A stretch of DNA of 62,243 nt, filler included, from Stramenopiles sp. TOSAG23-6 (taxonomy: Eukaryota): NCBI GenBank assembly GCA_900128565.1. It is 19 parts of 19 records of this genome, joined end to end, with 100 filler letters (N's around TTAATTAATTAA, not from the genome) between each part and the next. Parts side by side here need not be neighbours in the genome. Positions count along the whole stretch, not along the records: positions 3,302 to 6,499 come from LT637617.1; 18 more parts are not named here. The stretch is one strand, 5' to 3'. How positions within the stretch are numbered: the stretch's first letter is position 1; each line of letters begins with the position of its first letter. The notes under the pieces were generated by a model that ran no database searches, was not told the origin of the DNA, and saw nothing but the letters and a program-made list of their open reading frames with translations. A program made the position numbers and the translations under genes. Below, in pieces: positions 4,043-58,873 of the stretch.

Positions 4043-4319
4043 TTGATCTTTTGCACAGTTTGTTTGTTTGTTTTGGTAAAAATATGGAGAGAGAGAAGAA
4101 GAAGAGAGAAGAAGAGAGAGCGAGCTCGAAATTTCGAAATTTTTCAAATTTTCATGAAATTTTCATGAAATTTTCGATGTTTTGTTTTTTCGTGTAATAA
4201 AAAAAATTGTGACCGAACATCAACTGATTCGATTAGATTCTAAGATTCATCAGATTTCAAAATTGTTAGAATTTGGTCTCCTTTCTTTCAAGAGTAAAGA
4301 TTTTTTTTAATATTTGATA

Positions 4320-6397
4320 ATGGTAGTATCATNGGAGAATGTTGAATCAATTGTACATAATGTGGTTNATAATACACAAGTAGTTGACCTTCATACTCAT
4401 TTATTNCCATTTACTCACGANGATTTATTTGTGTATGGCATTGATGAGTTATTGACATATCACTATCTCATTGCTGAGTTCTTTGCAGTTGCGTCGAATG
4501 AAATTTCCACTGAAGTGTTTTTCTCTCTGACAAAACAGAAACAAGCAGATTTGATTTGGTACAAACTGTTTATCCAGCGTTCCCCAATATCCGAGGCTTG
4601 TCTGGGCGTTTTGACAGTTCTAAAAAAGTTAGGTTTAGATACTTTCATTGTAAATCGTGATCTTCAAGGTATTCGTTCATGGTATGCAAAATTTTCACCA
4701 GAAGAATTTGAATCTTTAGTATTTACAAAAGCTAAAGTACGATATGCAGTCATGACTAATATCCCATTTGACCCAGTCGAAGCAAAACATTGGATGAACA
4801 ACAAAAAAGTTTCAAGTTATTATGTACGTTTTATTTTATTTTATTTTTTTTTTGTTTTTCGTACGAAATTTTGTACCTAACGAATTTTCAATTTTTTTTT
4901 TGAAATATTTTTCCAAAATAAACAAGTCTGCTCTGCGCGTAGATGCTTTACTTTCAGCCAATGGATGGGACACTGTCTCAAAATCGCTTGTTGCTGCTGG
5001 TTTTCCAGCATCTATTGAAGGAGCACGAGAATATTTACGATCTTGGATTAAACGAATGAACGTTTTCATTTCGATTTTTTTTTGAAATTTTTTTTTTCGT
5101 ACGAAATTTTGTACCTAACAAATTTTTTTAGATTTTTTTGAAATTTTTTTTTTATAAAAATTTTGTACCTAACAATTTTTTTTTTTATAGAAAAATTTTG
5201 AAATATTTTTTCACAATAAATATCTCCTGTATATTTGATGGCTTCGACGCCATGTGGATTTGCAACTCCTCTTCCGTACCAAAATTCCGTACCTAAAAAC
5301 CCTAACCCTAACAGCAGTGAAGAATCTCCCTCACCTCAAACACTTCTTGTTGATGTTATTATATACGTTGCTCGTGAACAAAATTTGGCTGTAGCGATGA
5401 AAATTGGCGCTGATCGATGTGTAAATCCTTGTTTGCACACAGCTGGTGATGTATATTTTCATCATGAATTTCAAATTTATTTATTTTTTTTTTTTTTATA
5501 GAAAATTTCAAATTTTTTTTTTTTTTTCAAAATTTTAAATTTTTTTAAACAATTTTCTGTTGTTTCACATTTTGTCAATATTATAGGGTGTCGAAGTCGC
5601 TGATCTTTCAATCATCAAATATTTCTGTCAAAATTTTCCAGATGTGAAATTTTTAGTCACTGTTCTATCAAGAGTAAATCAGCATCAATTAGTCGTATAT
5701 TCTCGAAAATTTCCAAATTTACATATTTGTACAATTTCATTATTCATTTTTCTTTCTTAAGTACAAAATTTCGTATGAAAAAAAAAAAATTCTTCCGTAC
5801 TGGTACCCTAACCCTAGCCCTAATTGTTCAATATCATTTATTGTGTACAATGTAATATTCTCAATGTTTTTTTCTTTTTGCTTTACTGTTAACAATTTAA
5901 TTTTTTTTTTAAATTTTTTTATGATTTTATGTACAGTATTCAATTAGGGTTAGGGTTTTATTTTTATGTATATATGAAAATTATATACGAAATTTTGTAC
6001 CTAACAATTTTTTGTTTTTTTTTCAATATATTGTTGTACACTATATATGGTTGTTGGTGGTTTTGTAACAATCCTAGTATTATTGAAGAAATCTCTAAAA
6101 TGCGAATTGAAATGTTAGGTACTGCTTTTACTGCTCAACATGGATGTTTTATTTTTTTTTTAAATTTGAAATTGAAATTGAATTTTTTTTTTTTTTTTTT
6201 TCATAGTAAATTTTGTACCTAACAATTTTTTTCTTTTTTTGGTAAAAAAAATTTTGAAATATTTTTCCAAAATACATTCTGATTCTCGTGTATTAGATCA
6301 ATTATTATATAAATGGGATCATTCGAGAACAATCATTGCAAATGCTTTGAGTATATATTATAAAAAACTTGTAAACACTGGGTGGGCATTGACTACT
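4320..6397 (+). CDS. Uronate (glucuronate) isomerase-like amidohydrolase; exons 4320-4823, 4924-5057, 5222-5450, 5587-5728, 6047-6141, 6278-6397; 3' truncated
   Basis: DLHTHL metal-binding HxH motif, GIDELLTYHYLIAE, SPISEAC, VMTNIPFD, NLHIYGCWWFCNNPS and TAQH|SDSRVLDQLLYKWDHSR. All are rebuilt by removing family introns. Confidence 0.85.
5058..5221 (+). other. Non-canonical intron GA..AT with two copies of the internal motif
   Basis: AT|GAACGTTTT...CACAATAAAT|A joins WIKRI-SPVYLMAS in frame. Confidence 0.7.
6142..6277 (+). other. Non-canonical intron GG..AT (slides within a CAT direct repeat)
   Basis: CAT|GGATGTTTT...GTACCTAAC...CCAAAATACAT|TCT restores the conserved QHSD motif. Confidence 0.85.
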
Positions 6398-6599
6398 ATA
6401 TGTTTAATTTTATTTTTTTTTGTTTTCGAAAAAAAAAAATCGATTTTTTTTTTTTTGGTAAAAAAATTTTGTACCTAACAAATTTTCAAATTTTTTTTTN
6501 NNNNNNNNNNNNNNNNNNNNNNNNNNNNNNNNNNNNNNNNNNNTTAATTAATTAANNNNNNNNNNNNNNNNNNNNNNNNNNNNNNNNNNNNNNNNNNNN

Positions 6600-9500
6600 T
6601 TTCTTTCTCTTATTTATCCGAGTATTTGTAGTATCATCTAGAAGAGCATCTTCAAGATGATTACTTCTTTTATGCATTTTAGATACCTTATTTTTATTTT
6701 TATGAGATGTTTTCCCACCATGTTTTGTTGAGGTCGAGTTCCTATTATTCTTATTTCTATGGGATCCTTTTTTTCTTTTCTTCTTTCTACCAGATTTTGA
6801 ACGCTTCACCTCACGGCCGATTAAAGCTTCCATGTTATTAAGACGAAAATTGAAATGATTCAAAGATAATCTTCGTGTATTACATGTATTTTGAAAAACT
6901 ATGTTTGAAGTTTTTAATTCGTTAGGTATGAAATTTCGTACTAAAAAAACAAATAAAATTCCTGGTGATAACGTACATAATCCAGATGCGTCATCATCAG
7001 CACCACGACAGTCCAATAAAGCCTTACAAGAATTCGTTTTTGACATTTGATTTTTTTTTTTGGTACTCTTCGAGTCATTATTTATTGGCAGATTATCAAT
7101 TTTATTAGAATGTCCAGCAATTACAAATAAACCTTCAGCAGACGACATGTATTTTGGGAAAATATTTCAATTGTTTTTTGTGAGGTACAAAATTTACTAT
7201 AAAAAAAAATCGATTTTTTTGTTTAAAAAAAAAATAAAACATACATTGACATATTTCCTTTTTGTGGTGAACTTTGAGAGCTGAGTTCAAAATGCTGGCT
7301 AGATGTAGATGTCTCCGGAAAGTTTTGAATTCTGTCACATTCCATATCATCTCCCTTTTTGTTTGAAATCTCTGTAGAATCTGTGGCTAATTCACTGTAA
7401 TTTGTATCACTTTCAGCAATTTTCTTTTCGTTGTATCTTTTTTTTTCATCACTACTATATTTTGGAAAAATATTTCAAAACTTTCTTAAAAAAAAAAATT
7501 GTTAGGTACAATATTTTTATAAAAAAAAAAATCATACAAAAAAAAATAAAACATACATATGTTGGGCTGAAGAATTACAGTCTAAGTTTGCTCGTAAAGT
7601 AATAGGTACATCGACATCTAAGTAGTTGTATAACTTTGATAATGTTTTAGGTAATTTGTTTTTAAAAATAAAAAGAGGCCATCGAGATAAAACATGTATT
7701 TTGGAAAAATATTTCAAAAAAAATCGTTAGGTACAAAATTGCGTACGAAAAAAAACTCGAATTTAAAAAAAATTAAAACATACCTCAGCTAGACTCGGCA
7801 GTTGTGTAACACCAGAATCAAGAAGAAGAGAGATGCGACCAAATAATTGTCTTATTTCCTTACGCACACTACGAGACACAGGATCTTTTGGTAATGCAAG
7901 TTCAAAGCGTAAAAGAATCTGTATTGTATACTCAATAATAGCCTCGTATGATTTTAGAGTAATAAAATTATTTTCTGTAGTACAATCCGCATTCGATTCA
8001 GGGCATTCATTTTCATTGTGTACGACTACACTTGATTTTATATCAAATATTCCAATAGGTGGATACATTTTAGCTAACTGTAAACGAGATTTGATCAAAT
8101 TCAAACGAATCCAAGTAAATATTTTTTCTCTGGGGTTTTCTATAGACAATTGTTTATTTCGTGTAATAGTTTCGATTGCATCAGGAATAGCATGTAAGAT
8201 AAAATAAGAAGGATCACTCGTATACTTTGGAGTTCCTTCCAAAATAGAACTGTCCGAAAGCAATTCTCGAAATAATTTCGACCCATTGGAAATAATCAAA
8301 TTATACTTTTCTTGAAGATCCTCAAAAATCTCTTCGATACGATCAAATTTTCCTTCATTTTTGTTTTCATTATTTACATGGATCGTTGTATCATGATTTC
8401 CTTCATTTTTGTTTTCATTATTTACATGGATCGTTGCATCATGATTGGATATGTTGATACATTTTTCACAGTTTGTATTAGGGTTAGGGTTACTCAACAT
8501 TGTCGTCGGACATTCAGACAATGTTTCATTGTATTTATTTTGTATTTCAGAATTATCTAATAAATTTTGTAAATCTTCTTCAGATGGAAAATTAGATGAG
8601 AAACATTTGATGGAGGAAGTTTTTTGATTTCCGTCAAATTTCTCTACTTTTTTATCATTTTTATTCTCCATATACATTTTCTCTAATTCATTCTGCAATT
8701 GTTGGAAACGTTCAACTTCTACATTTGGTGTACTATTAATAATATCAATAGATCCAATGATTGCACTATTTCTAATTGATTTATCTGATATTTTCGTCTG
8801 TACATTAATAGGTGTTTTCATCACAAAATCGTTATCGGAGGTATTCCTATTTGTTGTCAGGGAAGTTTCGTTTTTTAATGTGATTGGCTCAAGAGAATCT
8901 GACAATGTATCAGGTGAATCAAGTGCACTTTGTAAGGCTGTTGGAAAATGACGCGGTATATGTATTATGAAAAATATTTATTTTAGTCAAAAAACATTAT
9001 TAAGTACGAAATTTTCTACCAAAAAAAAAGTTATACCTAAGAAAAAACATACATTTGAAAAATTGAAATAAACGATGAAATAAATGATGAAAACATACAT
9101 AATGATATGTACAAGGTTTGTTTCTTGACATTGTTTTATCTATAGTAATGTCGTGTGCCGAATGAGAAGATCGTAGCGCTAAATCGTCTATTAAGTGAGG
9201 ACAAAATTGAACATTTTTACATTGACTAAACACAACTGATAGTAAGTTTTGTGGGTTTTGAGGAGATATTTTTTTGATTTTCAAGTCATCTGAATGTAAA
9301 TGTGTAACGTTAGGGTTATTCGTTGTAGTTGGTTCAATTGTATCATCACGCGACGTATCTACACGGGACACATTTGAAAAAACTAATGGAATACAATCTT
9401 TTACAAAATTCGTCTTTTTTTTTGGTGTTTTTGTTTTCACTGGTATTTGAAATTCATTTTCTTTACAAATTGCCATTGGCGATACATTCAATGCACTAGA

Positions 9501-9795
9501 TGTAGATTGAACTTCTCTTATTATTCCAATAGTATTTGATAATGGGAATAATAGCAAAGTTGTTCCTTTTCTCATGAAAGAATTAAGCTTTTGTTTTTCA
9601 TGTTTTTCATTTGTTTTTTTGTTGTTAGGGTTAGGGTTAGGGTTTGAATCTTCCTTTGAAACGTCTAGAATAGCACAGAAACCAACATGAAGCAATCGAG
9701 TGAGTAATATAGAAAGATTGCCTTTATTAGTAAAATTACCTACAGTAGAAGAATACTTTAAATATTTTTTTTCCTTTTCATTCAAAGGAGATTCA
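6600..9795 (-). CDS. Treslin/TICRR (Sld3-Treslin domain)-like replication initiation protein, multi-exon, both ends truncated
   Basis: Spliced IQILLRFELA..KEIRQLFGRISLLLD..SLAE|VLSRWPLFIFKNKLPKTLSKLYNYLDVDVP resembles, from memory, the Treslin STD region (QVFLRLE...IPKTLGNLYNSL). Basic low-complexity tail. Several family introns, e.g. 7783-7694. Confidence 0.5.
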
Positions 9796-12173: not shown

Positions 12174-13025
12174 TCATTCACCACAGTAAATTGATAAATA
12201 CACTTCACCAAATCCATAGCAATGCAACATATTATGACTACTATATTTACGTAACGTTTGTTTCCTACGAATCATTTTTATTTGTGCAACAGCCTGTTCT
12301 TCCAACGATCCCATTCGAATCCAAACAAATTCTGGAATTTCTGGATTTTCATCATTGATATCAATGAGATCAACATTTGGTGAAATACCAGGTGTTTCTT
12401 CATTACACTTTTGAAAAGGTAAATTCAATTCATCTGAAATCAACTCTACTGTTACACCGTCTTGACGCAAACCTGTCAATTTTAATATAGAATTATACGG
12501 AATTGGACTGGATACATATATTGTGAAACAATATTTCAAAATTTTTTTACATGGTTAAGTACAGAATTTCATACGAAAAAAAAAAAAAAAAATTCCAACC
12601 CTAACCCTAATTCAAATTTTGAAAATGTACATGTAAACCATCTAATTGAATACGGCTAAATTTCCCTTTGCTAGTATTTGATATTTCTGGTTCTATACCT
12701 AATGATACAGAATATTTCATATTTATTAGATTATCAGTATTATCATATAAACCATCAGCATCACCAATAACTTCAACAAATGTATTGTGAAAATTAAAAA
12801 AAAAAAAAAAAAAAAGTGTTAGGTATGAAATTTACTATAAAAATTTTATACGAATTTTTTTTTTTTTTGGAAAATGAAAATGGAAACGTACATGCACTAA
12901 GAATAGGAGAATATAAAGTTGAGTCATTAGGGTTAGGGCTATCTTCATTGTTCACATTATTTGGTATTTCTTCTGCTGTATCACCAAACAGTTCAGCAAC
13001 TCCATCTGTTGCATATAACGTCGCA
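12174..13025 (-). CDS. Hypothetical multi-exon protein, 3' part
   Basis: Three coding-like blocks separated by family introns, with internal motifs near 12555, 12818 and 13059. Confidence 0.55.
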
Positions 13026-13189: not shown

Positions 13190-16100
13190 TTTCTTTCTCT
13201 TATTTATCCGAGTATTTGTAGTATCATCTAGAAGAGCATCTTCAAGATGATTACTTCTTTTATGCATTTTAGATACCTTATTTTTATTTTTATGAGATGT
13301 TTTCCCACCATGTTTTGTTGAGGTCGAGTTCCTATTATTCTTATTTCTATGGGATCCTTTTTTTCTTTTCTTCTTTCTACCAGATTTTGAACGCTTCACC
13401 TCACGGCCGATTAAAGCTTCCATGTTATTAAGACGAAAATTGAAATGATTCAAAGATAATCTTCGTGTATTACATGTATTTTGAAAAACTATGTTTGAAG
13501 TTTTTAATTCGTTAGGTATGAAATTTCGTACTAAAAAAACAAATAAAATTCCTGGTGATAACGTACATAATCCAGATGCGTCATCATCAGCACCACGACA
13601 GTCCAATAAAGCCTTACAAGAATTCGTTTTTGACATTTGATTTTTTTTTTTGGTACTCTTCGAGTCATTATTTATTGGCAGATTATCAATTTTATTAGAA
13701 TGTCCAGCAATTACAAATAAACCTTCAGCAGACGACATGTATTTTGGGAAAATATTTCAATTGTTTTTTGTGAGGTACAAAATTTACTATAAAAAAAAAT
13801 CGATTTTTTTGTTTAAAAAAAAAATAAAACATACATTGACATATTTCCTTTTTGTGGTGAACTTTGAGAGCTGAGTTCAAAATGCTGGCTAGATGTAGAT
13901 GTCTCCGGAAAGTTTTGAATTCTGTCACATTCCATATCATCTCCCTTTTTGTTTGAAATCTCTGTAGAATCTGTGGCTAATTCACTGTAATTTGTATCAC
14001 TTTCAGCAATTTTCTTTTCGTTGTATCTTTTTTTTTCATCACTACTATATTTTGGAAAAATATTTCAAAACTTTCTTAAAAAAAAAAATTGTTAGGTACA
14101 ATATTTTTATAAAAAAAAAAATCATACAAAAAAAAATAAAACATACATATGTTGGGCTGAAGAATTACAGTCTAAGTTTGCTCGTAAAGTAATAGGTACA
14201 TCGACATCTAAGTAGTTGTATAACTTTGATAATGTTTTAGGTAATTTGTTTTTAAAAATAAAAAGAGGCCATCGAGATAAAACATGTATTTTGGAAAAAT
14301 ATTTCAAAAAAAATCGTTAGGTACAAAATTGCGTACGAAAAAAAACTCGAATTTAAAAAAAATTAAAACATACCTCAGCTAGACTCGGCAGTTGTGTAAC
14401 ACCAGAATCAAGAAGAAGAGAGATGCGACCAAATAATTGTCTTATTTCCTTACGCACACTACGAGACACAGGATCTTTTGGTAATGCAAGTTCAAAGCGT
14501 AAAAGAATCTGTATTGTATACTCAATAATAGCCTCGTATGATTTTAGAGTAATAAAATTATTTTCTGTAGTACAATCCGCATTCGATTCAGGGCATTCAT
14601 TTTCATTGTGTACGACTACACTTGATTTTATATCAAATATTCCAATAGGTGGATACATTTTAGCTAACTGTAAACGAGATTTGATCAAATTCAAACGAAT
14701 CCAAGTAAATATTTTTTCTCTGGGGTTTTCTATAGACAATTGTTTATTTCGTGTAATAGTTTCGATTGCATCAGGAATAGCATGTAAGATAAAATAAGAA
14801 GGATCACTCGTATACTTTGGAGTTCCTTCCAAAATAGAACTGTCCGAAAGCAATTCTCGAAATAATTTCGACCCATTGGAAATAATCAAATTATACTTTT
14901 CTTGAAGATCCTCAAAAATCTCTTCGATACGATCAAATTTTCCTTCATTTTTGTTTTCATTATTTACATGGATCGTTGTATCATGATTTCCTTCATTTTT
15001 GTTTTCATTATTTACATGGATCGTTGCATCATGATTGGATATGTTGATACATTTTTCACAGTTTGTATTAGGGTTAGGGTTACTCAACATTGTCGTCGGA
15101 CATTCAGACAATGTTTCATTGTATTTATTTTGTATTTCAGAATTATCTAATAAATTTTGTAAATCTTCTTCAGATGGAAAATTAGATGAGAAACATTTGA
15201 TGGAGGAAGTTTTTTGATTTCCGTCAAATTTCTCTACTTTTTTATCATTTTTATTCTCCATATACATTTTCTCTAATTCATTCTGCAATTGTTGGAAACG
15301 TTCAACTTCTACATTTGGTGTACTATTAATAATATCAATAGATCCAATGATTGCACTATTTCTAATTGATTTATCTGATATTTTCGTCTGTACATTAATA
15401 GGTGTTTTCATCACAAAATCGTTATCGGAGGTATTCCTATTTGTTGTCAGGGAAGTTTCGTTTTTTAATGTGATTGGCTCAAGAGAATCTGACAATGTAT
15501 CAGGTGAATCAAGTGCACTTTGTAAGGCTGTTGGAAAATGACGCGGTATATGTATTATGAAAAATATTTATTTTAGTCAAAAAACATTATTAAGTACGAA
15601 ATTTTCTACCAAAAAAAAAGTTATACCTAAGAAAAAACATACATTTGAAAAATTGAAATAAACGATGAAATAAATGATGAAAACATACATAATGATATGT
15701 ACAAGGTTTGTTTCTTGACATTGTTTTATCTATAGTAATGTCGTGTGCCGAATGAGAAGATCGTAGCGCTAAATCGTCTATTAAGTGAGGACAAAATTGA
15801 ACATTTTTACATTGACTAAACACAACTGATAGTAAGTTTTGTGGGTTTTGAGGAGATATTTTTTTGATTTTCAAGTCATCTGAATGTAAATGTGTAACGT
15901 TAGGGTTATTCGTTGTAGTTGGTTCAATTGTATCATCACGCGACGTATCTACACGGGACACATTTGAAAAAACTAATGGAATACAATCTTTTACAAAATT
16001 CGTCTTTTTTTTTGGTGTTTTTGTTTTCACTGGTATTTGAAATTCATTTTCCTTCCAAATTGCCATTGGCGATACATTAAATGCACTAGATGTAGATTGA

Positions 16101-16379
16101 ACTTCTCTTATTATTCCAATGGTATTTGATAATGGGAATAATAGCAAAGTTGTTCCTATTCTCATGAAAGAATTAAACTTTTGTTTTTCATGTTTTTCAT
16201 TTGTTTTTTTGTTGTTAAGGTTAGGGTTTGAATCTTCCTTTGAAACGTCAAGAATAGCACAGAAACCAACATGAAGCAATCGAGTTAGTAATATAGAAAG
16301 ATTGCCTTTATTAGTAAAATTACTTACAGTAGAAGAATACTTTAAATATTTTTTTTCCTTTTCATTCAAAGGAGATTCA
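13190..16379. repeat. Second copy of contig 6600-9795 (Treslin-like gene), allelic or assembly variant
   Basis: Same ORFs offset by 6590. Visible differences cluster in the last ~350 bp: several substitutions and a 6-bp indel in a TTAGGG tract. Confidence 0.95.
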
Positions 16380-16479: not shown

Positions 16480-16524
<45 letters not shown>

Positions 16525-16541
16525 TTTTTTTGGGAAAAAAA

Positions 16542-16585
<44 letters not shown>

Positions 16586-16589
16586 ATAC

Positions 16590-18460
16590 ATTGTAAACTT
16601 GAAGTTGCAACTGTATCTTTTGTACCAGATACTACAGTTAAAGGAGAAAACTGTATATTCCATAATAATGGCTTCCATTTTAAGGGACTCTGTGTTGTTT
16701 TAAAAAAAAAATTCAAAAATTTGTTAGGTATTTTTTTGAGTTTTTTGAGAAAAAAAAAATTTATCCAAAAAAAAAAAAAAAATATGTACAACATTTGAAA
16801 AAAAAAAACCTACAAAATATCCAATTTTACCACCCACAAAAAAAGACTTTATGAGTGAAACTATATTCGAATGTTTAAGCATTCCTACAGTCACCATATC
16901 AATAGTGCTTTTGTTGAAAATACTTAACACTAAAACTTTGAGGTCAAGTGCATTGATTGTTGCTTTTAGAACAACAGTTTTGTCCACAACGGTTGTAGAG
17001 CCTAAGTCTAAGAAAACGCCAAAATGTAATTCAATAGAAACATCTTTAAATTCTAATTGACTTTCAAAAGCTTCAGAACTTTTTGTATAGAACAAATCTG
17101 CCGTCAGAAAAGAATCTAAATTAAACACTTTAAGTTTCTTCACTGATATTATTAGATTACTCCTTTGATCATTTCGTTGTTGATCAACACCAAGCGTTAA
17201 CCTTTGTGTACCAGTCAAGAATTTAAAGAAATCAAATTTCTGAACAGTAGCACCTTGTTGAGCCGCTGGTTCTGGTTGAGCCGCTGGTTCTGGTTCATTC
17301 CTAATTAATAGTTGAGCCACTGGTTCTGGTTGAGCCGCTAGATCTGGAACCACATTTGCATTCCTAATTAATAGTTGAGGCGGATTCTCATTCTCCTCAT
17401 CTGCTGGCAAGATAGGAATGTCATTGTTAGGATCCAATTTTCCCGATGATTCAAAGACAAAACATGATTGAGCACTAGGGTTTGTAGATGAAGAGAAATC
17501 GTCACATTGCGTAAAGAGATTACGTATAATAGCGCTGATTTTGAGTTGCTCAGATTTTCCAATGGTCTCACCTAACACATCAGATATGTCTGTCGCAGTA
17601 GACTTGAGCCACTGTATTTCAATATTATACGGATCAACTGCATCGAACTGATTCTTAGCGATTAAATCGTCTTTAAAAGCAGTGACATTGTCCTCCAGTA
17701 GTGTTATATCTGGTTCTTCTGACAAACCAAAGTCAGCTTCACGACTATTCGTGTAACTTCCAAAAAATTGATCTACAGATTGCAACAATTTCTTCCCTCG
17801 TGTCATACCAAGTGGCACAAGAGTGTTGCATATAATTGAACTTAGAGGAAGAGTGTTTTGGAGAGCTCTACTGACAAGACTGAGGTCTTTTATTGAGACA
17901 TTCTTCACATGACAATGCTTCACGTTTCCTACGTCGTTTGGTAAAGACAGTTGCTCTTTAGACACCAATGATAAAGTTAAATCTACCGAAACGTTATCTA
18001 TCCCCCAAGTTGTATACGATTCCAAGATGGTTCTGGGCGCTGTTCCGCGCTCTTTAAACAACTCCAGAGTGAATGCCCCAGTGATCTTGATACTGAGGTC
18101 TCGTTCTGCCCTTCCATCAGAAATGAGCAGTCGGGAAGGGTCAATATCTAGTTGTGATAGCTTCAGATCCCTAATATGTAGTTTCTTGATATCTTTTAAT
18201 CCTGTCCAAGACATTGCAGAATCAACTGCAGAATTAACACGAGAACCAAACCACCCCCTTTCACTACTCGCGGTGGAGTCGGTGGAGTCGGTGGGGTCGG
18301 TGGAGTGTAAAGAAATAAGCGGGAACTTTACAGTGTTCAATACTTTGTTGAGATCTCCAAAAGGTTCCGAGACAACGCATTGAAGAATATAAAGGACCGA
18401 CAGTAACACAACTACATATCGTTGATGAGCAAAAGTACGCACGCGTCGGTGGAAATACAT
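16590..18460 (-). CDS. Hypothetical signal-peptide or membrane-anchored protein, 3' truncated
   Basis: Long ORF with a hydrophobic segment VVVLLSVLYILQCVVS, beta-rich segments and internal AAQPEP repeats. Ends in family introns. Confidence 0.7.
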
Positions 18461-18894
18461 CGTTTTTGAGGGACGAGAATTCCAAGCTTTGTTGCTTTTG
18501 TTTCTTTCTTGTTTCTTTTGTGTTTTTGTTACAGTTTTACACCAGTACCATAGACAAAACCAGGAAATATAGTCAGTCATTTTTGCTGAGATCATTTTAT
18601 TATTTTAAGTACGAAATTTCGTATATATACGAATTTGTGATCAACGATCAAATTCGTTTTGACAGGAACTAAAAAATGGGTACCGGGTAACATTTTGTAC
18701 GTGGGAAACCGGGTATCCGAAGAAGATATCCGTTAAAAATCAAAAACGAATCTTTTACTCTTCTGTATAAGGTGGGAAAGCTATACCCTTTATTCCAGAG
18801 ATATTCATCTATTTGACATTTGCTTTCGTTTAAAAGTTATCAAATACATTACAAAGCAGCTGAGCTGTAGTACTACCTTTATTTCAATCGTTCA

Positions 18895-19669
18895 ATGGAG
18901 GAAAAATACCGAGAAGAAGCTGATAAAGACTTTTCAGATCTTCAACTTAGTAAGGAGAGAAACTTACTTGAAAGGGCAAAAGCGCAAGAAAAAGAAATAA
19001 AGCGTGCGCTTGAAAGAGAAGTAGCTAAACTAGAACAGGATCGAGAAAAGAAATATTATGAAGATAAATTCAATAATTTGTCGACCCCCAACGTGAGTCC
19101 CACACACTCGATGGAACAATTGACGGCAAGGGACGCAAAAGAACAAGAACGACAAAATCAAATTCTGTTTCAATTGCAGAGAGAAACAGATATGTCCGAC
19201 AAAGGAATATGGAACAAAGAACCAATTCTACTGGAGTTACAGAAAGAAAGACAAAAAAATATGGACCTTTTAGAGGAACAAAGACGACTCTTAAAAGAGA
19301 GAGACAAAGAATCGCAGCTTCTATTAGAACTGAAGAGGGAGAGAAATGCCAATGTGTCCCTTTTAGAAAAAGAAAAACAATCATTATTGGAAAGACAAAA
19401 AAAGGTGATTCGTGAACAATCATTATTGGAAAGACAAAAAAAGTTGACTCGTGAAAGAGAATTAGGGATTATCAGTCAAGCAAATTATGATGAACGGGAA
19501 GCAAACCTTTTATCAGATTTGAAAACAGAAAGAGCGAAAAATACAGCCTTTGAAAATGCTTTATTGCAGAAAGACCGAGAGATTGCGAGGAGAGCAAAAG
19601 ATCAAGAACGGGAAGCAAAACTTGATTTGAAGAGAGAGAGGGACAAAAATGTAGCTTTTTTAAAAGAAG
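18895..19669 (+). CDS. Coiled-coil E/K/R-rich hypothetical protein, 3' truncated
   Basis: Open frame to the contig end with repeated LLxELxxER heptads. Confidence 0.7.
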
Positions 19670-19769: not shown

Positions 19770-19814
<45 letters not shown>

Positions 19815-19831
19815 TTTTTTTGGGAAAAAAA

Positions 19832-19875
<44 letters not shown>

Positions 19876-22800
19876 ATACATTGTAAACTTGAAGTTGCAA
19901 CTGTATCTTTTGTACCAGATACTACAGTTAAAGGAGAAAACTGTATATTCCATAATAATGGCTTCCATTTTAAGGGACTCTGTGTTGTTTTAAAAAAAAA
20001 ATTCAAAAATTTGTTAGGTATTTTTTTGAGTTTTTTGAGAAAAAAAAAATTTATCCAAAAAAAAAAAAAAAATATGTACAACATTTGAAAAAAAAAAACC
20101 TACAAAATATCCAATTTTACCACCCACAAAAAAAGACTTTATGAGTGAAACTATATTCGAATGTTTAAGCATTCCTACAGTCACCATATCAATAGTGCTT
20201 TTGTTGAAAATACTTAACACTAAAACTTTGAGGTCAAGTGCATTGATTGTTGCTTTTAGAACAACAGTTTTGTCCACAACGGTTGTAGAGCCTAAGTCTA
20301 AGAAAACGCCAAAATGTAATTCAATAGAAACATCTTTAAATTCTAATTGACTTTCAAAAGCTTCAGAACTTTTTGTATAGAACAAATCTGCCGTCAGAAA
20401 AGAATCTAAATTAAACACTTTAAGTTTCTTCACTGATATTATTAGATTACTCCTTTGATCATTTCGTTGTTGATCAACACCAAGCGTTAACCTTTGTGTA
20501 CCAGTCAAGAATTTAAAGAAATCAAATTTCTGAACAGTAGCACCTTGTTGAGCCGCTGGTTCTGGTTGAGCCGCTGGTTCTGGTTCATTCCTAATTAATA
20601 GTTGAGCCACTGGTTCTGGTTGAGCCGCTAGATCTGGAACCACATTTGCATTCCTAATTAATAGTTGAGGCGGATTCTCATTCTCCTCATCTGCTGGCAA
20701 GATAGGAATGTCATTGTTAGGATCCAATTTTCCCGATGATTCAAAGACAAAACATGATTGAGCACTAGGGTTTGTAGATGAAGAGAAATCGTCACATTGC
20801 GTAAAGAGATTACGTATAATAGCGCTGATTTTGAGTTGCTCAGATTTTCCAATGGTCTCACCTAACACATCAGATATGTCTGTCGCAGTAGACTTGAGCC
20901 ACTGTATTTCAATATTATACGGATCAACTGCATCGAACTGATTCTTAGCGATTAAATCGTCTTTAAAAGCAGTGACATTGTCCTCCAGTAGTGTTATATC
21001 TGGTTCTTCTGACAAACCAAAGTCAGCTTCACGACTATTCGTGTAACTTCCAAAAAATTGATCTACAGATTGCAACAATTTCTTCCCTCGTGTCATACCA
21101 AGTGGCACAAGAGTGTTGCATATAATTGAACTTAGAGGAAGAGTGTTTTGGAGAGCTCTACTGACAAGACTGAGGTCTTTTATTGAGACATTCTTCACAT
21201 GACAATGCTTCACGTTTCCTACGTCGTTTGGTAAAGACAGTTGCTCTTTAGACACCAATGATAAAGTTAAATCTACCGAAACGTTATCTATCCCCCAAGT
21301 TGTATACGATTCCAAGATGGTTCTGGGCGCTGTTCCGCGCTCTTTAAACAACTCCAGAGTGAATGCCCCAGTGATCTTGATACTGAGGTCTCGTTCTGCC
21401 CTTCCATCAGAAATGAGCAGTCGGGAAGGGTCAATATCTAGTTGTGATAGCTTCAGATCCCTAATATGTAGTTTCTTGATATCTTTTAATCCTGTCCAAG
21501 ACATTGCAGAATCAACTGCAGAATTAACACGAGAACCAAACCACCCCCTTTCACTACTCGCGGTGGAGTCGGTGGAGTCGGTGGGGTCGGTGGAGTGTAA
21601 AGAAATAAGCGGGAACTTTACAGTGTTCAATACTTTGTTGAGATCTCCAAAAGGTTCCGAGACAACGCATTGAAGAATATAAAGGACCGACAGTAACACA
21701 ACTACATATCGTTGATGAGCAAAAGTACGCACGCGTCGGTGGAAATACATCGTTTTTGAGGGACGAGAATTCCAAGCTTTGTTGCTTTTGTTTCTTTCTT
21801 GTTTCTTTTGTGTTTTTGTTACAGTTTTACACCAGTACCATAGACAAAACCAGGAAATATAGTCAGTCATTTTTGCTGAGATCATTTTATTATTTTAAGT
21901 ACGAAATTTCGTATATATACGAATTTGTGATCAACGATCAAATTCGTTTTGACAGGAACTAAAAAATGGGTACCGGGTAACATTTTGTACGTGGGAAACC
22001 GGGTATCCGAAGAAGATATCCGTTAAAAATCAAAAACGAATCTTTTACTCTTCTGTATAAGGTGGGAAAGCTATACCCTTTATTCCAGAGATATTCATCT
22101 ATTTGACATTTGCTTTCGTTTAAAAGTTATCAAATACATTACAAAGCAGCTGAGCTGTAGTACTACCTTTATTTCAATCGTTCAATGGAGGAAAAATACC
22201 GAGAAGAAGCTGATAAAGACTTTTCAGATCTTCAACTTAGTAAGGAGAGAAACTTACTTGAAAGGGCAAAAGCGCAAGAAAAAGAAATAAAGCGTGCGCT
22301 TGAAAGAGAAGTAGCTAAACTAGAACAGGATCGAGAAAAGAAATATTATGAAGATAAATTCAATAATTTGTCGACCCCCAACGTGAGTCCCACACACTCG
22401 ATGGAACAATTGACGGCAAGGGACGCAAAAGAACAAGAACGACAAAATCAAATTCTGTTTCAATTGCAGAGAGAAACAGATATGTCCGACAAAGGAATAT
22501 GGAACAAAGAACCAATTCTACTGGAGTTACAGAAAGAAAGACAAAAAAATATGGACCTTTTAGAGGAACAAAGACGACTCTTAAAAGAGAGAGACAAAGA
22601 ATCGCAGCTTCTATTAGAACTGAAGAGGGAGAGAAATGCCAATGTGTCCCTTTTAGAAAAAGAAAAACAATCATTATTGGAAAGACAAAAAAAGGTGATT
22701 CGTGAACAATCATTATTGGAAAGACAAAAAAAGTTGACTCGTGAAAGAGAATTAGGGATTATCAGTCAAGCAAATTATGATGAACGGGAAGCAAACCTTT

Positions 22801-22959
22801 TATCAGATTTGAAAACAGAAAGAGCGAAAAATACAGCCTTTGAAAATGCTTTATTGCAGAAAGACCGAGAGATTGCGAGGAGAGCAAAAGATCAAGAACG
22901 GGAAGCAAAACTTGATTTGAAGAGAGAGAGGGACAAAAATGTAGCTTTTTTAAAAGAAG
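19770..22959. repeat. Duplicate of contig 16480-19669
   Basis: Identical ORF set offset by 3290 and identical ends. Confidence 0.97.
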
Positions 22960-29709: not shown

Positions 29710-30835
29710 ATTTCAAAGTCTTTTGATTGAATATAATGAGATTGAAATATAGGATAATAATTCAGCATACTTTTTACTGCGGCATTGAAAGATAAGCAAC
29801 ATGCTTCATGGCAATTCGATATCTCTTGTGAAAAATCACGAAATAATAATGAAAGTATACCAACTCCAGTTTTAGCTAGTAAACAAAGTTCATGATTACC
29901 CTGGCCTATTGGTAGTTCAACAATTTTCTCCAAAATTTTCAAAACAGTAGGGATAAAATTCTTCACAATTTCGATATATATTGAACCATTCGTGGTTGAA
30001 CGCATGTCTTGTGAAAAATATTTCAAAAACAAATCTAAAAAAAATTGTTAGGTACAAAATTTCGTATAAAAAACGTTAGGTACAAAATTTCGTATGAAAA
30101 ACGTATATATCCTGTAGATGTTCAAGACATCTTTTGACTAAAGTGAGAGCTCGGACATGTGTTAGATGACTAAAGACTTTTGTGCCCTCCTCCAGAACCC
30201 ACAGAGACTGAGATACGTATTGTGAAAAATATTTTCAATTCGAAATTCGTTAGGTATGGATTTTCGTACGATAAAAAGTACATTCGAAATTCAATTTTGA
30301 AAACGCACATGAATCGCGGGAAAAGTTCAGCTACAAGAGTATCAGGCACGTCTGAAACCAAAATGCACATACATGAAAGAGCACCTTCTGCTTGACTAGA
30401 ATTTAAATTGTCAGCTTTTTGAATAAGCCCAAATAGACCATCCATGAGCTCGGGCCATTCTTCAGGCCAGTCATTCGAGGCAATCAAGGCAATGCAAACT
30501 GCTGATGCAGTTCTGATTTTGCCACTGGTGTCACTCAAGCCACATGGAATACGCACACGAATGTACGCCTTCTCATCTGCGAGGATAACACGTTCACAAG
30601 CTGTAATTGGTTTCCATCTAGCTTCACAAAGCTGCCTCAGAATGACGCCAGATAATTGCCTCAGTGCAAGGCGAATGCCATTTGTAACTAAGATATCGAC
30701 GAGAGTTCTGGCAAAACCATCAATATTTTTAAAAGATTCTATTGCTTGCTCTGCAGACTGTCGCGTTGTAAGGTCAGGGGATAGAGTTCCTTCTAACACC
30801 CGAAGGGCTTGCATTTGTTGTCCCTCTGTCACCAT
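29710..30835 (-). CDS. IPO9: Importin-9-like karyopherin, 5' part
   Basis: IBN_N-like RQSAEQAI..LRQLSGVILRQLCEARW and IRTASAVCIALIASNDWPEEWPEL. Introns 30308-30215 (GT..GT) and 30106-30004 (AT..AT) keep the frame open. Confidence 0.8.
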
Positions 30836-39490: not shown

Positions 39491-41750
39491 ACTGTCATTT
39501 TTTTCTTTACAAGTGGATTATGCATTGATGTATTCAACAAAATTGATGTATTGTGAAAAAATATTTTTTTTTTAGCAAAAAAAATCGTTAGGTATGCAAT
39601 TTCATACGAAAATAAAATGTATGTAAAAAAATCAATTTTAAAAACGTACATGTCTCAGACACAGTTTCACAGAAAGAAACACAAGGATCTGCAACTTTAA
39701 TTTCTACTTCTGAAAATAGACATCGAAGATCATACATGATTGAATCTGCATGAAGTTCACCAGTACTATATATTACGTGTTCTCCAGATTCCTCAACTTT
39801 TGTATGAGCTAATGGGTAACTTTTATTAACATTTCGAAGACCTTCAAGCATTTTTGGTAACTCCGATGGACGCAACGGTTCCACTGCAATTTTAACAACC
39901 GAAATTGTATCAAATACCAGAGGTTTGAAAATGGCAAGAGCTTCGCTTTCACCTGAGGGTACATCTCCAGATGTAGATGAATATGTATTAGCATCAAGAG
40001 AACATACTGTTGCTGTTTTCATGATACTAGCATCAATTCCTTCGAGCATGACTAAATTACCAGCAATGGCTCGAGAAATATTAACTCTATATCGTCCTTG
40101 CATAACAGCAACAGATGTTACTCGACAGGTAACGCAATCTTCTTCATCGTATTCTGAATAACCTTCGCCAAGGACAGATACATTTTGTGCTGGGCTTAAA
40201 GTCCCCGAAAATAAACGCCCAAAAGCTCCAAATGTTTTACCATCCGGGGAAGGAAACATTTTTACTACATTAAACATTACAGGAGCATCAGATTTACATT
40301 GTTTCATAGCAAGGGAAAGAGCTGAGTCTTGTGATCCAGAATATACTCGAGAGACTTTAGTAGGAGCTCCAGTTTTAGGAGTTGGCAAATGATTTGTAAC
40401 CATGCTTACAATTCCTTCGACACGGTGTTTTTGACCAAAAAAACGTGACATGACAATCTTAATTAATGGAGCAGGATCCATTCGTAGTTCTGTTTTTTTT
40501 ACTTTTATATGCAATTCTGATAATGTTTTAGCAAGCTCATCCTCATGTTCACCTAATACTTGCGAATACACCTTATACAGTGGTTCTAATATAAACTCCA
40601 CAAAAGTTCGTTTCATGCTGCTATTCGCCCGAGTTTTAGAAAATTGTCGAGTTTCTGCATCGAAAAATATGTCACCCCAAAGCCTTCGTGCAAAAGCTGT
40701 GGCATCAACATTTCCATGCCATCGACTATAATGTTCCGCAAATGATAATAAAGTGAAACTCCATCCATCAGTACTTGAAGTGAACGCGACATTTCCTAAT
40801 TCAGGTGAAACTCTCGCCGTGGACGAATTAGTACTATTACCCAAAGAAAATGTTGCGAGTATATTATTGACTTCTTGAATGACGTGACATATTTTATGAA
40901 AGGCATCAGTCGGTGGTAATCTTAACTCAGTAATGAGACGATCCATTTTAGACAAAACTAAAGTAATCGGTATTCCTGCTTGACACACATGTTTTAAAAG
41001 TCTCTCTGTTTGCAGCATCACACCTTCAACGACATCTACTACAACAATACAACCATCCGCAGCTCGTAATGACGCTGTTACTTCACCAGAAAAATTTGGA
41101 TGCCCAGGTGTGTCAATAACGTTGAGTAAGAAGTGCTTGCCTCTGATGTCAGGCAGGACTACAGTTATAGGGCAAGCTTTTAAACTTATACCGCGTTCCT
41201 GTTCATCTTTACGAGTATCTGTATAGCGCCTTTGACCATGTAATGGCCACGATTCTTTGTGGGTTTGTTCAATAAGTAAATCCAAAAGACTAGTTTTCCC
41301 GTGGTGTAAGTGACCAACAACAGCAATATTACGAATGAGTGAAGTTGTTTCCATCAAAGTCGTCATGAACTCAAGTGAATAATTAAGCTCTGGAACTTCT
41401 TTCTCCAAAACTGAAAATACTTTGGCTTTGACAGGTTTGATTATTGGCTCTGTAATTGGTTGCGTATCCTCGTCTTCAACACGAGTCTCGGCGTCTGGAT
41501 ATACTTCACTTGCATCTGGATAGTATTGTTTGTCTTCTTGAAGCACGATCTGCTGCCCAGCAGCGGCAGCATTGGTTGCTGCTGCTGCAGAAACATCACC
41601 TAACAGTGCCAATTCATCCCCCTCTGCATCACCACCAGATTCTGGTCCAGATTCGGAATCAGAGCTTTCAGAATCGAACGCTTCTGAGTCAGACCCCGAA
41701 AGTTCAGGGCCAATGTAATTCCCAAACTCGTCATAAAGTTCTTCGTCCAT
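39491..41750 (-). CDS. EFTUD2: U5 snRNP 116 kDa GTPase (Snu114), 3' truncated
   Basis: MDEELYDEFGNYIGPEL, IVLQEDKQYYP, GHLHHGKT, DTPGHPNF, AVEPLRPSELPKMLEGLR, KVEESGEH. First family intron at 39649-39546. Confidence 0.97.
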
Positions 41751-42101
41751 ATCGATAGAGACACTAGATTAGCACTTTAATAAATTAATACAAGCCTTTC
41801 TTATATTCCAATCTTTCTTCAACAATTTCTCACAACTAAACGTAACTCAATGGGTTGTACACTGAATAGGGTTCTTCGATAAGGAGCGGACTACCTTTTT
41901 TGTTACGTACTATTGCGGGTCTTGCATGGAGAACGTGCTCTCGACGACCTCGACTCTCTCTCGCGAGTTCATTCAATTCCAATTTTTTTTTTTTACCTAG
42001 GCTAGACGGGCAGTTTTGTTCCTTGGAATGAATTGAAATAATTTCAAAGGTTCAAAAAAAAAATTGAAAAAATTTAGACAGCCCTGGCTAAACGCTACAC
42101 A

Positions 42102-42767: not shown

Positions 42768-44312
42768 TTTTTTTTTTTTTTTTTCAAAGGAATTTTTTTC
42801 CCTAACTTTTTTTTTTTTTTTTTACTAACCAAAAAAAAAAAAAATTAATATTTTTCCAAATTACATCCAGTTTTATTATCTACACTGACTAATGAAGAAA
42901 AAGCTTATATAGATTTGACAATAACTAAAAAAACTAAAAAAACTAAAAAAAACAAAAATTCTACATCTGATGATAGCCCTAACCCTAACAAAAAATCTAC
43001 AAATTCCAAAAATTCCAAAAAACGAAAATCTAAAGATTTATCTAAAGAAATATCAACAGAATCGATTATACCCAACCCTAACCCTAATTCACCAAAAAAG
43101 AAGAAAAAAAAATCACCAAAAAAAAAACACGAAAAATTAACAAAATTGTTTCAAGCAGTACAAAATATTATGCACAATTGTCAAAAACATGAAAAAATAT
43201 TTTTTTCCTTTTACTCAAAACAATTAAAACCATTTGTATCTCAGCATGTGTTATCAAAATTACCAAAATTAACTGACCTTGAAAGAAGTTTTATTTGTAT
43301 GTAGTCAAACATTCAAAACATTTCAAAAAATAATTTCATACGAAATTTTTGTACCTAACCAAAAAAACCAAAAAAATTTAAATTTTTTTTTTTTTCATAC
43401 GAAATTTTGTACCTAACATTTAAAAAAAAATATATAATTAAAGCAGCACAGATGATAACTTATTTGATCCCGGGACACCATCATCTGTTGTTCAACCAAT
43501 CGGGATTGGAAATGTATCTAAAAAGCTAACTCTTTATACTCATCAATTAAAAGGGTTTGAATGGTTATTGTACATGTTTGATAGAGGTATGCATCCAATT
43601 CTTGCGGATGAGATGGGTCTAGGGAAAACCATCCAAACAATTACATGCATGTTTTATTTTTTTCAAATTTTTTATCTACATTTTTTTTTTTTTTGGTAAA
43701 AAAATTTTGTACCTAACAGAAAAAATCAAAAAAAATATTTTTTCACAATTACATTTATTGCTTCATTAAAATTAGATAGAAAGTTACCAGGTACTTTTCT
43801 AATAATAGTTCCACTCAGCGTTATTTCGAATTGGATGATCGAAATCCAACGATGGTGTCCCACATTACGTGCAGTTCGACTTCATGTACGTTTTTGTATT
43901 TCAATTTTTTTTTTTTAAATTTAAAAAAAAAAAAAAAAAAAAAATTTTCAAATAATTTTTTTTTCCCAAAAAAAAAATGTACCTAACAAAATTTAATTCT
44001 TTTTTTTTTTTTTTTTTTCACACAATAAATACCTATGAAAAAACAGAGAGGGACCGCATTCGTGATAGTATCATTCAAGATATGAATGAATTAGATATTG
44101 TTGTTACAACGTATGAAACTGTGAAAGGAAAAGATATGATATCTAGTCTTATTCATCAAACAACTTGGCTTGGTGTTGTGTTGGATGAGGCACATCGCAT
44201 AAAAAATGAAAAAAGTAAAACATCAGTGGTTTTGTCACACATCAAAGCATGTATAAAGATATTATTAACTGGAACTCCATTACAAAATAACATGTATGTT
44301 TTACATTATACC

Positions 44313-44344
<32 letters not shown>

Positions 44345-44362
44345 TTTAAAAAATTTTTTAAA

Positions 44363-44394
<32 letters not shown>

Positions 44395-58092: not shown

Positions 58093-58873
58093 ATGACGAT
58101 ATTTCGATTCGTTAGTTACCGTGTCGGTACATATGCTGGAACTATCGCTGCAGCTTTTCCAAAAACTAATACGATATGTATGCGTCGTTCATTGACGACA
58201 TCATCAAGAGTGTGTTATAGCAATGCTTCAAAAGGCAAGACATCACCTGCCGGTGTAGTAGTCGAAGAGTCAAGTTCTTCCAACCTTGCTGTTGAAGAAG
58301 AGACACTTATATCAGAATTAGTGAAAAAGACTAGGGGCAGGGATACTACAGTGAAGGATGTTACACGCGAGATTCAAGGTGCTGCAGCTCGATTAGAGTC
58401 TGAGCTTTTAGCTGAAACACATAAAAAATCTATAAAACCAGTGTACAAGGGAGTGAAAGGAGCATCTGCTAGATTAGAAGCAAAACTTTTAGCGGAGGAA
58501 CCAGAAAGCTCCATTGATGCGGTTATTGCAAAAAAGAAACGTCCAGACGCACCAGTGATGAAGCAAATGAAAACAATGACACAAGAAGAAGCGCGATTAT
58601 CAATGCAAATGGCCCGCCTGCAAGAAAATGCTACATCATCTAACTCTTCTAATACTTTGCCTAACCCTAACCCTAATACTTTGCAAATTTCAAAAACTGC
58701 AAAACCTGAAGTACATTTGGATTCCCTCACAAAAAACGATAATAAAAAAGTTGCCTTAAAATTAGCCGTCGAAAATGCTGCTCAAAGTTCTGCACCTCAT
58801 TGGGTACAGAGTATATATTCAGCTCCACGAGTCATTTTTAATGGAATTCTGGCTGGTCCTAGCCAATGGCGTA
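58093..58873 (+). CDS. Probable mitochondrion-targeted protein, first exon
   Basis: R/S/T-rich, acid-free presequence (..MRRSLTTSSRVCYS). Ends at a family donor. No domain recognised. Confidence 0.6.

Follow-up and report, generated by a model that had tools for sequence, protein, structure and literature searches.

Whether introns can be removed when they do not start with GT and end in AG is the question raised by a uronate-isomerase-like gene in a stretch of DNA from Stramenopiles sp. TOSAG23-6 (assembly GCA_900128565.1). The whole stretch analysed, hereafter the window, comprises 62,243 nt and consists of 19 contigs of ~3.2 kb separated by 18 linkers of the form N...TTAATTAATTAA...N. The GT-AG rule is close to universal, and the lineages that break it wholesale are few. 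The first-pass annotation of the window proposed that the 5' dinucleotide is relaxed while AYGTTT is kept at +3 to +8, and that the constraints on both intron ends have been lost together. We found 40 complete introns in the window, each a copy of one short template, and the larger anomaly is their 3' end, the departure at the 5' end being the smaller one. In our judgement, these are probably spliceosomal, U2-type-like introns of a single introner-like family, cut at ends defined by their motifs.

The template can be written as exon-AT/GTAYGTTTT ... CGTACGAAATTTTGTACCTAAC ... ATATTTTTYCAMAATA-NAT/exon (slashes mark splice junctions throughout), and its copies are ~80-320 nt long. We curated a set of 36 introns, to which four later additions were made, giving the total of 40. 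Aligning 28 members of this total yielded the consensus nnnAT/GTATGTTTT..TACGAAATTTTGTACCTAAC..AAATATTTTTTCACAATACAT/, in which the 5' block is followed by a T-rich spacer, often with AATTTCRAATTTAT, then by CGTACGAAATTTTGTACCTAAC, a second spacer, (G)AAATATTTTTYCAMAATA and N-A-T. The aligned introns are alike over their length, with three to four conserved blocks, as in introner families. The words of the template occur in the window in large excess, with 55 matches to TACCTAAC and 36 to the 3' block ATATTTTTYCAMAAT (0.84 expected for each) and 15 to AATTTCRAATTTAT (1.06 expected). Contig ends frequently fall within the intron repeat and, beyond whole introns, family copies were found only as antisense fragments, within two introns. 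A CTAAC branch word is present in 30/36 curated introns and, in 26 of these 30, lies 33-56 nt upstream of the 3' end; a T-run lies upstream of the 3' block, as expected of a U2-type branch region.

We took each intron to run from the G of GTAYGTTT through the T of N-A-T, the third base past AATA (rule A). Cutting by this rule joined the flanking reading frames in 39/40 introns, corresponding to 35/36 in the curated set (binomial p 5e-16 against an expectation of 1/3) and 4/4 among the later additions. In a set picked by motif quality and flanking open reading frame (ORF) length only, the best upstream and downstream frames were joined in 23/23 cases, and 35/36 introns are in sense orientation relative to their flanking ORFs. 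The ends of the 40 introns are GT-AT (28), GT-AG (6) and GT-AC, GT-GT, GA-AT, GG-AT, GC-AT and AT-AT (one each). Most family introns thus lack an AG end, 34/40 not being GT-AG. The 3' dinucleotide is AT in 32 introns, AC in one and GT in one, the AG of U2-type introns being found in six; position -2 is A in 39/40, whereas -1 is T in 33/40, G in 6/40 and C in 1/40. The downstream exon starts with G in 18/36, both junctions reading CAT/G. For 26 of the 34 introns with ends other than GT-AG, no alternative GT..AG pair within 15 nt keeps the frame without introducing a stop.

Comparison with homologous proteins agreed with these cuts. The spliced translation of the isomerase gene (374 amino acids) is stop-free, ~60% identical to P0002 with no frameshift, and shows no gap at any of its five junctions when aligned with P0002 and P0012; rule A gave the best model in 7/8 references. 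Exons 1, 3, 4, 5 and 6 match PDB 2q08_A, exon 2 alone had no PDB match, and a Pfam search with the six exons taken singly gave no match. For intron 1, the alternative AG located 3 nt downstream had a lower score in 7/8 references. Removal of intron 2 yields KRISPVYLMAS, equal in length to the DKINPVYLMAS of two homologues. Other registers of intron 4 yield the same protein; the earlier registers considered for it (options D and R) were dropped in favour of 5729-6046.

The kinesin gene served as a register control. Once its six rule-A introns are removed, it encodes 424 amino acids, stop-free and gapless to P0121 through the motor domain, with the junctions MNH/TSSRSH, KES/ININ, GNV/ISALGD and IAC/VSPA aligned to this sequence. 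A model in which each intron ends at the first AG breaks the frame and scores 653, versus 1100 for rule A. In the SNF2 gene, the junction is continuous in the SNF2h chains 6ne3_W (52/53/54) and 8v4y_W (217/218/219), the spliced product of the GC donor at 43647 being of the right length. In the importin-9-like gene, rule A scored 469 for the intron at 30004..30106, versus 458-467 for variants shifted by +-3 nt, with P0241 (46% identity) as the closest homologue, and omission of the 36-codon exon between the two introns lowered the score against P0241 from 469 to 393. The coordinates of these features are given in Table 1.

Table 1. Positions of the genes, exons and introns described in the text, counted along the window
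Feature	Position	Strand	Ends	Length (nt)	Remarks
Uronate-isomerase-like gene (BH0493 type), exons 1-6	4311..6397	+			exon ends 4823, 5057, 5450, 5728, 6141, 6397
Isomerase intron 1	4824..4923	+	GTACGT...AAAC	100	in frame; K kept in ..YYK/SALRVD as in P0002, P0012
Isomerase intron 2	5058..5221	+	GAACGT...AAAT	164	in frame; doubled branch module; slides 3 nt
Isomerase intron 3	5451..5586	+	GTATAT...ATAG (GT-AG)	136	no CTAAC; TAGD/GVEVAD continuous with 2q08_A 274/275, P0002
Isomerase intron 4	5729..6046	+	GTACAA...ATAT	318	in frame; antisense branch module and telomere-like repeats; NLHI-Y-GCWWF as in homologues
Isomerase intron 5	6142..6277	+	GGATGT...ACAT	136	slides 4 nt (ACAT); QH/SD exact against 2q08_A 353/354, P0002, P0012
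Isomerase intron 6	6398..6499	+	ATATGT...		placed by sequence and family register; cut off by contig end after branch module, no acceptor seen
Importin-9-like gene intron	30004..30106	-	ATACGT...ACAT	103	in frame; doubled branch module
Importin-9-like gene intron	30215..30308	-	GTGCGT...ACGT	94	in frame
EFTUD2/Snu114 (U5 small nuclear ribonucleoprotein GTPase) exon	39591..41768	-			Pfam PF16004 (E 9.8e-33), PF00009
SNF2 intron	43647..43754	+	GCATGT...ACAT	108	in frame; homologue numbering; slides 10 nt
Kinesin intron	50442-50540	+	GT...AT		register control
Kinesin intron	50693-50772	+	GT...AT		register control
Kinesin intron	50810-50905	+	GT...AT		register control
Kinesin intron	51029-51120	+	GT...AT		register control
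Kinesin intron	51317-51456	+	GT...AT		register control
Kinesin intron	51531-51658	+	GT...AT		register control

At the 5' end, the six donor strings reported by the first-pass annotation were all recovered: GAACGT (5058), GGATGT (6142), ATATGT (6398), GCATGT (43647, + strand), ATACGT (30106, - strand) and GTGCGT (30308, - strand). The intron starting with the last of these does end in GT, as reported (...ACGT at 30215), and AYGTTT is perfect at +3 to +8 in all five non-GT donors. The observation itself is confirmed: the non-GT starts are real, but they are few (4/40 plus one incomplete intron), and there is no general loss of GT. The start is GT in 36/40 and GC in 1/40, with GA, GG and AT, one each, lying outside the GT(/GC) of U2-type introns; +1 is G in 39/40 and +2 is T in 37/40. 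Among the 36 donors of the curated set, deviations from GTAYGTTT were distributed as one at +1, three at +2, three at +3, five at +5, one at +6, three at +7 and four at +8, with 4/20 falling on +1/+2. These two positions are therefore no less conserved than +3, +5, +7 and +8. No deviation was found in 17 donors, one in 18 and two in a single donor; +3 to +8 were perfect in 4/4 complete non-GT donors, versus 17/32 GT donors (Fisher p 0.07 with the incomplete donor included). GT varies as do the other positions of an 8-base word that tolerates one mismatch; it is much less constant than in ordinary genomes, yet it is not singled out.

The non-GT donors are unevenly distributed, with 3/6 donors in the isomerase gene versus 2/31 elsewhere in the window (Fisher p 0.022). 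A further AT start, at 59463, was dropped, the donor being GTTTGT at 59459 in a GST-like frame; this frame was chosen by eye and the automatic pick disagreed, and the intron at 59459 was excluded from all counts.

The first-pass annotation held that the donor at 6142 is fixed by the QHSD motif, and this was confirmed by the exact fit of the junction (Table 1). This GG donor is firmly pinned by homology, and it is the only non-GT donor so pinned. The AT donor at 6398, where the contig ends inside the intron, is suggested by the motif register only. It was recognised at the outset that a cryptic GT nearby might be used instead. Such a site would be the GT at +5/+6 of NNAYGT, the second in the motif, used with a matching shift of the 3' site, and all introns would then start with GT. 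Family donors do carry GT at +5/+6 (+5 is G in 31/36 and +6 is T in 35/36), and at 5058 this is an equal alternative, as a model shifted by +4/+4 (GT 5062 ... CT) scored +3 over GA...AT against four homologues; the GA reading would be favoured there by the family register alone. At 30106, a wider register scan against homologues was not discriminating, with one GT-start model scoring +1. At 6142, however, the best GT-start model loses 44 units, GT-start models within 15 nt all losing at least 44, with destruction of the conserved Ser-Asp, and there is no GT-AG model. Moreover, the 3' site would have to leave the register of the other introns by 4 nt, the frame is broken if it stays unmoved, and the resulting donors (GTTTTC, GTTTTA) fit the family word poorly. 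We give the use of a cryptic GT only a slight chance.

The non-GT starts might also be sequencing or amplification errors, or belong to a dying isomerase copy with unspliced introns. The assembly does show artefacts of amplification, one contig being a palindrome and others near-duplicates, and three of the five non-GT donors are in one gene. However, four or five errors in ~80 donor bases would mean that several percent of the bases were wrong, yet the frame of 374 codons is intact, the other two cases are in the SNF2 and importin genes with intact frames, and the changes affect one position per donor only. Decay of the isomerase is unlikely because the frame of the gene is intact, and we attach hardly any credence to artefact or decay as an explanation.

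The idea that both terminal constraints have been lost is not supported in that form by the counts: +1 is still G and -2 still A in 39/40, +2 is T in 37/40, and -1 has switched to T (33/40). The corresponding mechanistic explanation is an altered catalytic core of the spliceosome, with a dispensable contact between G+1 and G-1, both termini free, and only the U6-type pairing at +4 to +6 kept. The scarcity of G at -1 (only six introns), the four non-GT starts among 40 introns and the conservation of +5 and +6 are all consistent with it. The pattern GUAYG...AY is also similar to the consensus at the boundaries of group II introns, which end in AY. However, -1 carries a new fixed letter rather than being free, and +5 deviates more often than +2 (5 versus 3 of 36). 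No covariation between the first and last bases is visible among 36 introns, in which the pairs are (G,T) in 31, (G,G) in three, (G,C) in one and (A,T) in one, although a single A-start intron is too few for a judgement. In addition, the core small nuclear RNA (snRNA) motifs of Fritillaria borealis are described as strictly conserved in the text consulted, the changes affecting U2AF paralogues and snRNA methylation (m6A) (PMC13326754). Nothing bearing on Prp8, U2AF or snRNAs was found in the window by Pfam and Rfam scans. An altered core seems to us unlikely.

The exact position of the ends is a separate matter. The exon flank repeats the last bases of the intron, usually as (C)AT at both, and the ends can therefore slide by 2-4 nt (10 at 43647) with the same mRNA, such that GT..AT, TG..CA and AT..AC look alike in RNA. 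The four complete non-GT introns, at 5058, 6142, 43647 and 30106, slide by 3, 4, 10 and 2 nt, respectively, without change to the mRNA, and all four can slide to AT starts. The last two bases of the exon are AT in 30/40 introns, versus a dinucleotide background of 9.7%, and this flank is tied to the AT intron end (28/34, versus 2/6 for AG-ending introns; p 0.026), giving an AT/AT direct repeat at the borders of 28/34 AT-ending introns, always of the same two bases. A 3-nt target duplication was considered and rejected, as the third base matches in ~11/26, about as base frequencies predict. The link between AT flank and AT end could reflect a 2-nt target duplication, a protosplice preference or slid ends in some introns.

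If slid ends were the rule, the true ends would be 2 nt upstream, as AT...AC (or AT...AA, AT...AT), and the non-GT cases would be ordinary A-start members with an A/C terminal pair. The excess of AT flanks and their link to AT ends agree with this, the four non-GT introns slide by at least 2 nt, reading AT..AA, AT..AC, AT..AC and AT..AC, and A-C and G-G terminal pairs have been described as isosteric, in the text available from one report (PMC13326754). Where the flank is not AT, however, the slide has a cost: in the three kinesin introns concerned, a shift of -2 turns a conserved V into D, a conserved C into Y and a conserved R into H, the score against P0121 changing by -7, -11 and -5. The six GT-AG members occupy the unslid alignment register, and the conserved, yeast-like GTAYGT would, if slid, sit at +3 to +8, off the scissile bond. 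The mRNA being mostly the same, RNA-seq cannot decide between the registers. We consider a general slide of this kind improbable, and the unslid register of rule A is used below.

The ends of the introns are also complementary to each other, exon -2 to intron +4 pairing with -6 to -1 in 82.7% of cells. However, 185/500 shuffles score as high, and this complementarity is therefore a property of the two consensus words, resembling a terminal inverted repeat, rather than evidence of a selected pairing. RNAalifold found 0 conserved pairs and no consensus structure on the family alignment. Complementary ends and a 2-nt direct repeat at the borders could nevertheless indicate removal by something other than the major spliceosome, whether as nonconventional introns of the euglenid type, as U12-type introns or as elements excised at the DNA level, and U12-type introns tolerate non-AG ends. 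The consensus of U12-type introns is RTATCCTT at the 5' end, with the branch word TCCTTAAC at 10-20 nt from the 3' end, whereas the 5' word here is GTAYGT, with G at +5 and T at +6 in 31/36 and 35/36 introns, and CTAAC lies at least 33 nt from the end. The sense orientation of 35/36 introns is unlike random DNA insertion. As for the euglenid type, the borders here are conserved, the end helix lacks covariation, and the pairing of +4..+6 with -8..-6 described in the text seen of one report is impossible, G at +5 facing A at -7 (PMC4770533). Taken as a whole, these routes outside the major spliceosome appear very improbable to us.

Other observations weigh against the interpretation of the introns as a U2-type-like family cut at motif-defined ends. 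The intron at 15550-15642 (-) is out of frame with the longest flanking ORFs, and it may be in an untranslated region or beside a mis-picked frame. In 8/34 introns that are not GT-AG, an in-frame GT..AG alternative does exist within 15 nt. There is no CTAAC in 6/36 family introns, and the branch block is therefore not strictly needed. The search was driven by the motifs, such that introns outside the family would be missed. The complete non-GT cases number only four and, with the incomplete one, 3/5 are in one gene; two of them, at 5058 and 30106, have the GT-start alternatives given above. The AT flank in 30/40 means that GT..AT and AT..AC give identical mRNA; moving both ends by the same amount leaves the frame intact, and such registers are seldom told apart by homology. 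Finally, a protein search with isomerase exon 2 found only P0001, a public coding sequence, and no transcript-derived protein across the junctions.

The branch region varies between copies. The six introns without CTAAC are 50693-50772, 5451-5586, 51029-51120, 12516-12630, 13737-13834 and 15550-15642; in the first of these, an 80-nt kinesin intron, the whole TACCTAAC word is gone, yet its removal is needed for KES/ININ. The branch block is doubled in tandem in two introns (5058-5221 and 30004-30106), and an antisense copy of it is present in two others (5729-6046 and 51317-51456), which suggests nested insertion or recombination between copies. Telomere-like (CCCTAA)2-3 repeats occur at 5300-5312, 5807-5824, 5945-5956, 58658-58679 and 61693-61711, in introns and, in frame, in exons (encoding NPNPN), and the branch word CCTAAC is equivalent to one telomere unit. 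A 19-mer of the branch block matched 0 viral contigs and three metagenome contigs, all unrelated; 22-mers of the 3' and branch blocks had 0 matches among prokaryote genomes, and a 20-mer of the family had one match, to an unrelated AT-rich viral contig. Among 16 sequencing runs listed for the window, three small DNA runs of one organism ('organism A') contain 0.52, 0.31 and 0.15 of the sequence words searched, and seawater metagenomes and metatranscriptomes contain 0.05-0.14, shares that say nothing on expression or habitat.

The public coding sequence P0001 (302 amino acids; 4311-5650, + strand) is 100% identical to isomerase exon 1 and bears the source label 'GSMAST32.ASY1.ANO1.404.1 assembled CDS'; we take from this label no more than a placement of the organism with the marine stramenopiles (MAST), and an earlier reading of the DNA as diplonemid was dropped in view of it. 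In P0001, intron sequence is translated after exon 1 and after exon 2, giving ..SSYYVRFILFYFFFSALRVD.. and ..KRMNVFFFEIFFLKFFF.., and the start of exon 3 is skipped. It seems that canonical splice sites were forced in this gene model. Isomerase exon 3 carries an 11-residue insertion relative to P0002, which resembles part of the branch block, exonised together with telomere-like repeats. Many eukaryotic relatives (~900-1100 amino acids) fuse mannitol-dehydrogenase domains (PF01232, PF08125) to the uronate isomerase, whereas the copy described here and P0002 are apparently unfused.

The window is AT-rich eukaryotic DNA (GC 24-43%), and its gene content is eukaryotic: kinesin, SNF2, Rab, importin, ankyrin, a CH-domain flagellar protein and Snu114/EFTUD2, the exon of the latter encoding a spliceosome component. 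An Rfam scan of the whole window returned 0 families, hence no U1, U2, U6 or other snRNA, and a tRNA search of the window returned 0. Contig 6600-9795 is nearly a duplicate of 13190-16379, contig 16480-19669 is apparently identical to 19770-22959, and contig 42768-45939 is a perfect palindrome, with reverse-complementary ends and mirrored motif matches. Palindromic contigs are a typical product of amplified single-cell DNA.

The introns of the window resemble the strong-consensus introns of yeast (GTATGT, TACTAAC and YAG ends) in their extended, near-invariant GTAYGT 5' word and their TAC(C)TAAC branch word. Yeast introns are, however, few and unrelated in sequence, whereas those described here end in NAT, are dense (40 in the window) and are alike throughout. 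Wholesale non-GT-AG splicing has been described in Fritillaria (PMC13326754), Amoebophrya (PMC7789003), and euglenids and hemistasiid diplonemids (PMC12621601, PMC4770533), and the comparisons that follow are limited to the portions of these reports that were available. In F. borealis, less than 10% of introns are GT/AG, and the U2-type spliceosome is thought to remove them (PMC13326754). As in the window, most introns escape GT/AG, there are non-AG 3' ends, and an introner or transposon origin has been proposed (PMC13326754). However, Fritillaria is a chordate with diverse intron ends, quoted as AG-A(N) (PMC7789003), whereas this protist has a uniform GT-AT class (28/40, with GT in 36/40) and long conserved internal blocks in its introns; only 1/40 introns has an AG exon flank that would allow it to slide to an AG start.

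The introners of Amoebophrya, also a marine protist, share with this family repeated introns, short direct repeats at the borders, complementary ends and borders that cannot be placed exactly (PMC7789003). They have no clear terminal signature in that account, form hairpins through inverted repeats of 8-20 nt and belong to many families, whereas the introns of the window form a single family in which the 5' and branch signals look canonical, complementarity extends over only ~6 bases and no structure is predicted. Introners are known from many lineages, and those in general resemble the present introns in whole-length similarity, hints of target-site duplications and terminal inverted repeats, and sense insertion into coding exons (PMC9860276). 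Described introners use canonical splice sites, as stated for Aureococcus, which is quoted along with Micromonas (PMC7789003), whereas 34/40 introns here are not GT-AG. The nonconventional introns of euglenids and hemistasiids likewise have mostly non-GT-AG borders, short direct repeats and pairable ends, and occur in marine flagellates, but they are described as lacking conserved borders or complementarity to U1 and as relying on secondary structure (PMC12621601, PMC4770533); in the window, conservation is high at the borders and in the yeast-like 5' word, and folding predicts no structure. As far as the cited accounts describe them, none of the systems compared has a uniform class of GT-AT introns in which the GTAYGT and CTAAC words remain intact. 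Our literature search, with supplements outside its scope, found no description of such introns in this group: 'MAST' and 'stramenopile' are absent from the main text of PMC9860276, and in the main texts of papers on marine stramenopile genomics, 'splic' occurs 0 times in PMC5778133 and 'intron' 0 times in PMC12614181 and PMC8163842.

The interpretation that we favour, of a U2-type-like introner family, would have the following form. Every intron found in the window belongs to this introner-like family, and recognition would depend on its long 5' and branch words. U1 and then U6 would presumably read the 5' site as a word of eight bases, with one mismatch tolerated anywhere, +1/+2 included, such that GA, GG, GC and AT starts might be used where the rest of the word is perfect. 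At the 3' site, A would be kept at -2 and U would replace G at -1, and the cut would be set by the distance from the 3' block, three bases after AATA, rather than by the first AG. The family structure, the excess of its motifs, the joined frames, the sense orientation and the agreement with homologues are shown by the sequence, whereas spliceosomal removal, snRNA pairing, a ruler-like choice of the 3' site and the precise cleavage register among the bases that slide are inferred. Under this word model, a U1 5' end complementary to AU/GUAYGUUU and a U2 fitting UACCUAAC are predicted. It is conceivable, although we would not put it quite at an even chance, that a free-living marine stramenopile lineage has re-set its splice rule genome-wide, to mostly GU...AU, with the 3' cut measured from an upstream block, a GU unprivileged within the 8-base word, single GA, GG, GC and AU starts that still splice, and an intron complement derived from one introner-like template with a telomere unit as branch word.

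To judge by P0001, in which canonical sites seem to have been forced, the features of these introns have apparently gone unrecognised so far. As intron sequence is read as protein in this model, the proteomes obtained for the group with GT-AG gene callers are probably damaged, and the damage would extend to comparative and metatranscriptomic studies that rely on these proteomes. The relaxation of the 5' site alone is modest; together with AT 3' ends and an intron complement from a single template, it would surprise a splicing specialist. The case would differ from the known ones in that the break is uniform (GT-AT), the textbook 5' and branch words are kept and all the introns are alike. It would therefore provide a clean natural experiment on the choice of the second-step site without AG, and on how much the first two bases can vary in an otherwise perfect 5' word.

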